Shown here one piece after another: positions 6,624 to 30,410 of a stretch of 30,410 nt of DNA; within the stretch, counting starts at the first letter, position 1; each line of letters begins with the position of its first letter. Below the pieces are notes generated by a model that was not told where the DNA came from, searched no databases, and worked only from the letters and a program-made list of their open reading frames with translations. Made by a program: the position numbers and the translations under genes. This stretch comes from a bacterium. GTDB taxonomy: Bacteria > Patescibacteriota > Minisyncoccia > Ryanbacterales > 2-02-FULL-48-12. The stretch lies in the NCBI GenBank assembly GCA_005239605.1, contig SBBS01000016.1, forward strand, positions 1-30,410, read 5' to 3'.

Positions 6624-6786
6624 TAGACCTGTCCCTTAATAAATTTTCGGCTAAAAATTCCCGAAATCTGGCCGGGGCTTGGTAAAAATTTCTTGCGTGA
6701 GTCCTGCGAGCGCTTCAAAATTTTCACCGGCGCCCCATCTCATATTTCTGAAATTTCACTCTAAAATTTATTAAGGGACAGGTCTA
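6624..6786 (+). mobile_element. Complete 163-bp non-autonomous element (REPIN/MITE-like) with perfect 24-bp terminal inverted repeats
   Basis: TAGACCTGTCCCTTAATAAATTTT at 6624-6647 and its exact reverse complement at 6763-6786; homologous copies at 1-98 and 30262-30303; no coding capacity. Confidence 0.88.
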
Positions 6787-30126: not shown

Positions 30127-30261
30127 GGTAACCCCTCCCTTCATACAGGATATATTGTCAAATTACATCAAAACATAAATTCCACATGGTTAAGAATAAT
30201 ATAACACATCCTATGCTTTCCCAAAAATGTTCGAGCAGAGTTCTGTATTGGCGGCCTATAA

Positions 30262-30303
30262 TAGACCTGTCCCTTAATAAATTTTCGGTTAAAAATTCCC
30301 GAA
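30262..30303 (+). repeat. Third copy of the element end (24-bp end plus subterminal hairpin)
   Basis: TAGACCTGTCCCTTAATAAATTTTCGGTTAAAAATTCCCGAA matches 6624-6665 at 41 of 42 nt, then diverges. Confidence 0.92.
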
Positions 30304-30315
30304 CGTAAAACAGTG

Positions 30316-30408
30316 TCAGGAGCGCTTTTTTGCAAAAAGGATATAATCTTTATCAGCATCAAATATCCGCATCCGCGCGTTTGCGCGGTTTATGACATGA
30401 TAGATAAT
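30316..30408 (-). pseudogene. Truncated Y1/HUH (RAYT-like, IS200-fold) transposase fragment, 5' end beyond the window
   Basis: Frame missing from the ORF track: IIYHVINRANARMRIFDADKDYILFAKKRS*. YHVxNR...IF...DY..F is the typical N-terminal motif of REP-associated tyrosine transposases; it stops before any HUH or catalytic Tyr motif. Confidence 0.7.
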
Positions 30409-30410
30409 CC

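Follow-up and report, generated by a model that had tools for sequence, protein, structure and literature searches.

A decayed, internally deleted TIRtron probably adjoins a truncated copy of an unrelated 163-bp inverted-repeat element at a Patescibacteria contig end

Elements of the IS200/IS605 type are small, about 0.7 kb, and carry a single gene whose product, TnpA, belongs to the Pfam family PF01797 (Y1_Tnp). They do not have terminal inverted repeats, their ends carry subterminal hairpins, and the target of IS200/IS605-type enzymes is one-sided. Homologous Y1 enzymes are found in REPIN-RAYT systems, in which a single-copy, vertically kept gene is flanked by its own abundant REP or REPIN, a short palindrome, usually GTAG-tagged, present in tens to hundreds of copies (Nunvar 2010; Bertels & Rainey 2011, PMC3116915; Bertels 2017, PMC5581495). 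Abundance of the 16-mers flanking a gene is a criterion for recognizing such REPIN-RAYT pairs (Bertels 2017, PMC5581495). RAYT-like genes that lie between terminal inverted repeats instead of GTAG REPs have been named TIRYTs and the units that contain them TIRtrons, with a motif, GGGGWSAS, that fits most members (Di Nocera, De Gregorio & Rocco 2013, BMC Genomics 14:522, PMC3733652). The same work reports that the 3′ repeat often overlaps the gene end, that the repeats are low in copy number and sometimes occur as gene-less dimers, and that the class predominates in species without REPs. Most TIRYTs fall in subclass 2.1 of Quentin et al. (2018, PMC6006769), for which C-terminal HTH-like Pfam matches were reported.

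The window, the whole stretch of DNA considered here, is 30,410 nucleotides long and is an entire contig (C5) of the assembly G000, which comprises 723 kb in 105 contigs, is 90.8% complete and derives from a groundwater sample (two runs). The contig ends at 30410, and the frame of interest is thus open at its 5′ end. It reads IIYHVINRANARMRIFDADKDYILFAKKRS on the minus strand from 30408 to 30319, followed by a TGA stop at 30318-30316, giving an open frame of 30 codons plus stop (30316..30408). Twelve bases (30315-30304) separate the stop from a repeat end at 30262-30303, which is identical at 41 of 42 positions both to the left end of a 163-bp element located at 6624-6786 and to an inverted copy at 1-98. 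Frame, stop, 12-nt gap and 42-nt repeat end are all present as the original prediction had described them. Neither the peptide similarity nor the repeat end is due to chance, because the peptide matches Y1 genes of relatives at E values of 9e-10 and 3e-9 and the 723 kb of the assembly contain the 24-bp terminal repeat 171 times.

Using tblastn genome by genome, the 30-residue fragment was found to be 73% identical over 26 aa (E 9e-10) to an intact ORF of G001, a member of the same genus (Candidatus Ryanbacteria RIFCSPHIGHO2_02_FULL_45_17b, contig MHNO01000010.1), and 77% identical over 26 aa (E 3e-9) to an intact ORF of G003, a member of the same family. G000 encodes, at another locus, a Y1_Tnp ORF whose N-terminus it also matches (12/24 identical, E 2e-6). 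The G001 and G003 ORFs, of 224 and 236 aa, have the motifs MPNHWHLV and YQGRYKS, and their last residues before the stop are RPKKRP. They score 67.6 and 64.1 bits against PF01797 (cut-off 23), and their 73-77% identity to the fragment bears out the claim of a RAYT-like Y1 remnant. The proposed PF01797 check thus came out in two parts, positive for the intact homologues (64.1-67.6 bits) and negative for the 30-aa fragment alone, which is too short for its lack of a Pfam or NCBIfam match to be informative. Against the NCBIfam model for REP-associated tyrosine transposases, NF047646 (REP_Tyr_transpos), the two ORFs align end to end at 67.6 and 72.8 bits, below the 80-bit equivalog cut-off. Against the IS200 equivalog NF033573 they reach only 23.4 and 17.6 bits (cut-off 55), and the family protein is about 70 aa longer than IS200/IS605 TnpA. 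A PDB sequence search with the intact homologue as query returned no match. A Pfam search of the intact homologue revealed no C-terminal HTH, unlike the HTH-like matches reported for subclass 2.1, although we consider that the family probably belongs to that subclass.

The fragment is what remains after an internal deletion. In the DNA alignment, the minus strand of the window tracks the 5′ coding region of the homologues, at about 78% identity across a 78-nt N-terminal block, as far as CTTTTTG and then passes directly into CAAAAAAGCGCTCCTGACACTGTTTTACG. This second block aligns with the last codons of the homologues, their stop and the bases downstream (CCAAAAAAGCGTCCCTGACCCCGTTATCG), with 23 of 30 columns identical to G001 and G003 and with homology extending about 13 nt beyond the TGA. 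Codons 1-25 of the frame line up with residues 12-37 of the 224-aa transposase, the only residues that tblastn locates in the window, and codons 26-30 (AKKRS) line up with its final five residues. The DNA alignment and the tblastn coordinates place the in-frame junction within codon 26, between its G and its CA (30332..30334, minus strand). Between the two blocks the ancestral gene has lost about 182 codons (546 nt). Two elements of the original prediction hold up here, namely the internal deletion itself and the reading of AKKRS as the original basic C-terminus, joined in frame, where the homologues end in PKKRP. The regions of the HUH motif (HWH) and of the catalytic tyrosine (GRYKS), present in the intact G001 and G003 homologues, are gone. 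Because neither motif survives, the copy in the window cannot encode an active enzyme; it is the relic of a TIRtron/TIRYT member and not a functional one. An exact 38-mer spanning the deletion junction had no match in metagenome contigs, and a search of the contig index for the neighbouring 440-aa protein found no record of it.

The family to which the relic is assigned carries terminal repeats of its own. Intact homologues are bounded by 19-25-bp terminal inverted repeats with the core GGGGTCAGG, a feature that separates them from IS200/IS605 elements, and these repeats overlap the stop codon. In G001 and G003, inverted pairs of AACGGGGTCAGGGACGCTT lie 717-738 bp apart around the gene, the right copy overlapping the stop. 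Eight metagenomic loci encoding P0001, an 87%-identical protein, have the same AACGGGGTCAGGGACGCTT-bounded layout, while five loci encoding P0059, a 66%-identical protein, have a co-varying repeat, GTAAAAGGGGTCAGGAGCCTTTTTT, of the GTAAAAGGGGTCAGGAGCC type; the stop codon falls inside the right repeat at all 13 metagenomic loci inspected. Thus all 15 intact homologues (G001, G003 and the 13 metagenomic loci) are enclosed by inverted repeats of the GATAACGGGGTCAGGGACGCTT or GTAAAAGGGGTCAGGAGCC type, and not one has TAGACCTGTCCC, with which the 163-bp element ends, in its flanks.

The relic has kept one of these repeats. The right terminal inverted repeat of the Y1 element, GTAAAACAGTGTCAGGAGCGCTTTTTT on the plus strand, occupies 30305..30331 (minus strand), takes in the stop together with the greater part of the last five codons, and resembles the P0059-type GTAAAAGGGGTCAGGAGCCTTTTTT. 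Nothing is lost up to the canonical terminal G, and the core, AGTGTCAG, is degenerate and agrees with GGGGWSAS at six of eight positions, whereas the homologue core, GGGGTCAG, fits the motif exactly. Both repeats are seen at G001, G003 and the 13 metagenomic loci; in the window only the right one is, as the contig stops at 30410, short of where the left repeat and the start codon would be. Among 400 genomes of the class, the repeat variant of the window was found only in the window itself. An exact 19-mer of the family repeat, searched in species-representative genomes, retrieved the G001 record and four single matches, which by our own estimate is about what chance would give.

The arrangement in the intact homologues corresponds closely to the TIRtron: a RAYT-like Y1/HUH gene, with HUH motif and tyrosine in G001 and G003, lies between terminal inverted repeats that are not GTAG REPs, the gene ends within the 3′ repeat, and the repeats are low-copy and sometimes form gene-less dimers. 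The window copy departs from it in being gutted, with 182 codons, the HUH motif and the tyrosine lost and the core degenerate. The host also differs, since the Patescibacteria/CPR are a group not covered in the TIRtron papers (PMC3733652, PMC6006769). The original prediction had regarded a cognate pair with a non-GTAG end as notable, but RAYT-like genes with non-GTAG inverted repeats are the very class that was named TIRYT (PMC3733652). REPIN-RAYT systems share with the family a homologous Y1 enzyme, the placement of the gene between inverted repeats and the occurrence of gene-less inverted doublets (in G000:C81, G005 and G003). They differ in that the repeats of the family are not GTAG-tagged palindromes, TAGACCTGTCCCTTAATAAATTTT and GATAACGGGGTCAGGGACGCTT lacking GTAG and showing no self-complementary hairpin by inspection, and in that the family score stays below the NF047646 equivalog cut-off. 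The family repeat is present in 3-9 copies per genome (its core 5-9 times), not a REPIN-sized population of tens to hundreds, and none of the intact homologues examined is flanked by an abundant REP or REPIN of its own; the abundant 163-bp repeat beside the relic is not the repeat of the family.

More than 7,000 homologues were recovered at E<=1e-10, nearly all of them 224 aa long, many on contigs of 0.7-2 kb, and annotated at source as 'transposase' in Paceibacterota/Patescibacteria MAGs. An identical protein is found in several different neighbourhoods. The Y1 family therefore behaves like an insertion sequence and is apparently mobile, unlike a RAYT gene kept vertically in single copy. Derivatives without a complete gene accompany it. 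G005 has a gene-less 133-bp doublet of family repeats, and G003 has two derivatives of about 230 bp, L025 (C6:152274-152502) and L026 (C6:156956-157184), located 4-9 kb from the intact G003 copy. These two share one internal deletion, which joins the left repeat to the last ~190 nt of the gene and the right repeat, and they differ at two positions within unrelated flanks; the pair looks like the copying of a non-autonomous derivative.

In G000 itself all assembled copies of the family are broken, at five loci including the window. The other four are a fragment with residues 102-136 joined directly to the right repeat (G000:C3:17318-17422), a fragment with residues 190-224 (G000:C1:153-257), a fragment with residues 1-16 (MPRNQRTDVGGIIYHI) that has kept its left repeat and is followed by a 54-bp mini version of the 163-bp element (G000:C1:1490-1538, within the region C1:1436-1592), and a gene-less doublet of family repeats (G000:C81:175-302). 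Past the 54-bp mini copy in C1:1436-1592 the sequence is unrelated to the Y1 element, which suggests rearrangement at copies of the 163-bp element. Short-unit arrays of variable unit number adjoin Y1 element ends (G000:C1:263-397, C81:79-170, L014, L025, L042); they repeat the outermost bases of the terminal repeat, as GATAACG / CCCCGTTATC or, in another subfamily, as CCCCTTTTAC. Two intact, more distant Y1_Tnp-like ORFs of 236 and 283 aa are present at G000:C20:9061-9771 and G000:C104:3119-3970, with PF01797 scores of 41 and 28 bits. They sit tightly between housekeeping-type genes with no visible end-repeats, similar ORFs occur in many relatives, and it is possible that they are domesticated.

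The element on the other side of the junction has a quite different character. Its complete reference copy (6624..6786, plus strand) is 163 bp long with perfect 24-bp terminal inverted repeats, and a partial inverted copy lies at the other end of the contig (1..98, minus strand; 94.9% identical over 98 nt). At 30262..30303 (plus strand) only its first 42 nt are present, the 24-bp terminal repeat at 30262-30285 followed by TTTCGG...CCGAA, corresponding to 6624-6665. The outer tip of this copy points toward the unique flank and its cut inner side toward the transposase relic. Across G000 the 24-bp end has 171 matches on 92 of the 105 contigs, and the copy at 30262 is the only one whose interior leaves the consensus for unique sequence. 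Of the 171, 137 are no more than 200 nt away from where a contig stops; this repeat family fragmented the assembly into 105 contigs. We count about 80-90 copies, with 12 complete, 7 mini (53, 54 or 67 bp) and about 80 split across contig ends. Together they make up 2.1% of the assembly at a median of 95.9% identity to the reference copy, and the element looks recently amplified, or young. It is ~72% self-complementary over its full length. Two independent truncations, in the window (30262-30303) and at G000:C56:2868-2934, fall at nt 41-42, where the subterminal TTTCGG...CCGAA hairpin has just ended; these breaks may mark a structural hot spot or be coincidence. A weak resemblance between the two kinds of repeat (CCTGTCCC vs CCTGACCCC) was judged not significant.

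Short, non-coding, bounded by terminal inverted repeats and present in many copies, the 163-bp element has the properties of a MITE. In general plan, as distinct from sequence, it would resemble the Correia elements of Neisseria and IS630-derived MITEs. These are non-coding elements of 100-170 bp with 24-26-bp terminal inverted repeats and TA at the tips in a palindromic AT-rich context; they reach about a hundred copies in a small genome, have shorter deletion variants (53, 54 and 67 bp here) and can lack a cognate transposase in the same genome. The flanks of the 163-bp element are symmetric at both ends, A-W-TA...TA-W-T, and 143 of 150 ends have A at position -2. Flanks of this kind point to a cut-and-paste enzyme that targets TA, one not present in the bin, as against the one-sided target of a Y1 enzyme. 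TA is present at both tips, and the syntenic spacer in G001 is too diverged to align, so it provides no empty site for a TA duplication. No parent element combining the same ends with a DDE gene came to light: DDE_3, DDE_Tnp_1, rve and mariner domains (PF13358, PF01609, PF00665 and PF01359) are absent from the 90.8%-complete MAG, an exact search for the ends of a parent gave 0 in genome, metagenome and viral contig collections, and a search of the MAG with relaxed ends, for inverted pairs at a spacing of 0.3-4 kb, gave none either. PF00872 is represented in the MAG by IS256-like scraps of 41 aa (G000:C57:101-200) and 68 aa (G000:C64:8008-8199), and among the assembled transposase-like genes only those for Y1 proteins are intact. 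Binning often leaves out contigs of high copy number.

How did the relic come to adjoin this element? The best explanation of the whole, and one we regard as probable, is a decayed, internally deleted TIRtron beside a truncated copy of an unrelated 163-bp MITE. Positions 30305-30410 would be the right-hand ~106 nt of a non-autonomous TIRtron copy, whose parent would have measured about 740 bp, with one RAYT-like Y1/HUH gene (a TIRYT of 224 aa) between 19-25-bp terminal inverted repeats. In the window the relic abuts nt 42 of one copy of the MITE, separated from it by a single base, C at 30304, that can be assigned to neither element; the 163-bp consensus has A at this position and the Y1 repeat starts at 30305. 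Most likely the (mini-)TIRtron, already gutted, inserted into a copy of the 163-bp element; alternatively, the two may have been brought together by an element-associated deletion in scarce non-coding DNA. We favour insertion over random deletion because the junction is within 1 nt of the canonical tip of the TIRtron and the inner side of the 163-bp copy faces it.

The adjacency by itself carries little weight, since non-coding sequence is 10.6% of the assembly by a crude ORF mask and 29% of it lies within 100 nt of a 163-bp element end. Two other dead transposase pieces are cut by 163-bp ends, one from the same family (C1:1538/1539) and one IS256-like, exactly at the end (C57:101-200). A statistical association of family relics with 163-bp ends in G000 was considered and rejected in view of this 29% null and of the IS256-like scrap that is likewise cut.

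The way the contig ends fits a TIRtron origin. Logan contigs of the sample, none of which reaches past 30406, rise in depth from ~30 to ~500 across 30350-30410, and a 99-nt contig at ~4x genome depth matches 30357-30406 and then continues as an undeleted gene (...KDYQLFEA). Both observations explain the end at 30410, where the contig would stop because the 5′ part of the TIRtron is repeated in the sample, and they show that intact relatives are present there. At position 30246 the Logan contigs of the sample have C where the window has T, and the contig over 30008-30287 has ~2x the depth of its neighbour; variant and depth hint at two co-existing strains.

The same contigs raise the possibility that the juxtaposition is an assembly artefact, the MAG assembler having joined relic and 42-nt repeat end at the repeat. 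The junction between relic and 163-bp element is not reproduced in this independent assembly: no listed Logan contig bridges 30303/30307, and the depth at 30314-30349 is that of a 474-nt contig alone, which holds 30307-30406 including the deletion junction, with 2 mismatches, and whose remaining 374 nt differ from what the window has to the left of 30307. However, Logan uses words of 31 nt, which cannot span a 42-nt segment at ~16,000-fold depth, and weak links beside such nodes are typically pruned. The MAG contigs, on the other hand, enter repeats by ~97-99 nt, which implies long words or reads that would need unique flank, 42 nt and relic together. Given the two-base difference, the 474-nt contig may represent another copy of the mini-element or another strain, and because short assembly words cannot span the high-copy segment we lean to that interpretation over a chimeric MAG junction. 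We therefore consider an artefact unlikely.

A further reading, the one advanced by the original prediction, makes the 163-bp element a REPIN-like cognate repeat, spread by a TIRYT/RAYT acting on its hairpin ends, with the relic as the original RAYT locus. It draws on the 3′ flank of the relic, where a 16-mer class found ~170 times in the genome meets the abundance expected of a REPIN-RAYT pair, on the REPIN-like self-complementarity of the element, on the two truncations ending at the foot of the subterminal hairpin, and on the lack of a DDE transposase in the MAG. The 163-bp terminal repeat also contains AGGGACAG, a 7/8 match to the TIRYT motif GGGGWSAS, but in the opposite orientation, and by a rough count such a match has ~8% probability by chance. 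Against the pairing speak that the relic has kept a different terminal repeat of its own, which lies between its stop and the 163-bp element, and that the 2 genomic homologues and 13 metagenomic loci likewise have their own repeats and none the 163-bp end. No match to the element was found in any homologue locus examined, nor by BLAST in 60 relatives, which include the TIRtron carriers G001, G003 and G005. In G000 every assembled family copy is broken, yet the 163-bp element looks recently amplified; the Y1 genes on C20 and C104 have no 163-bp copy within 3 kb; and the symmetric flanks are unlike an IS200/IS605-type target. The original prediction had itself set two outcomes against the pairing. 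The first, full-length homologues never flanked by this repeat, is what we observe at the 15 loci examined; the second, a DDE transposase with these 24-bp ends, was not encountered in the MAG or in the collections searched. We consider the element very unlikely to be the cognate repeat of this family, with the relic as its source locus, and amplification of the ~80-90-copy population as a REPIN-like family by a Y1/HUH TIRYT instead of a DDE transposase seems to us improbable to a similar degree. Should it hold, no large repeat population driven by a Y1 enzyme would have been described before in a reduced CPR genome. A more modest variant, in which only internally deleted mini-TIRtrons moved in trans, is suggested by the two near-identical G003 derivatives and by the second flank seen in the sample contigs.

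That the frame arose by chance and no transposase relic is present, which the missing Pfam or NCBIfam match of its own 30 residues might encourage, merits next to no credence and is effectively refuted by the tblastn matches to intact PF01797 genes and by the DNA alignment, in which the N-terminal block and the following 30 nt independently match the 5′ and 3′ ends of the same genes.

The end of the window is thus a decayed member of a class known from the literature, not a new pairing of repeat and enzyme, and recognizing this decayed TIRtron corrects an attractive but wrong match between a transposase relic and an abundant repeat. Where repeat ends are so close to so much of the non-coding DNA, adjacency is not evidence of belonging together. 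About 2% of this 0.72-Mb genome is a single, young-looking 163-bp inverted-repeat family without a visible transposase. In Patescibacteria, the RAYT-like Y1 elements with flanking TIRs that received their name in 2013 are very common and, apparently, mobile. The derivatives that they give off, gutted or without a gene, retain both ends, which bears on how REPIN-like doublets may arise from tyrosine-transposase elements.
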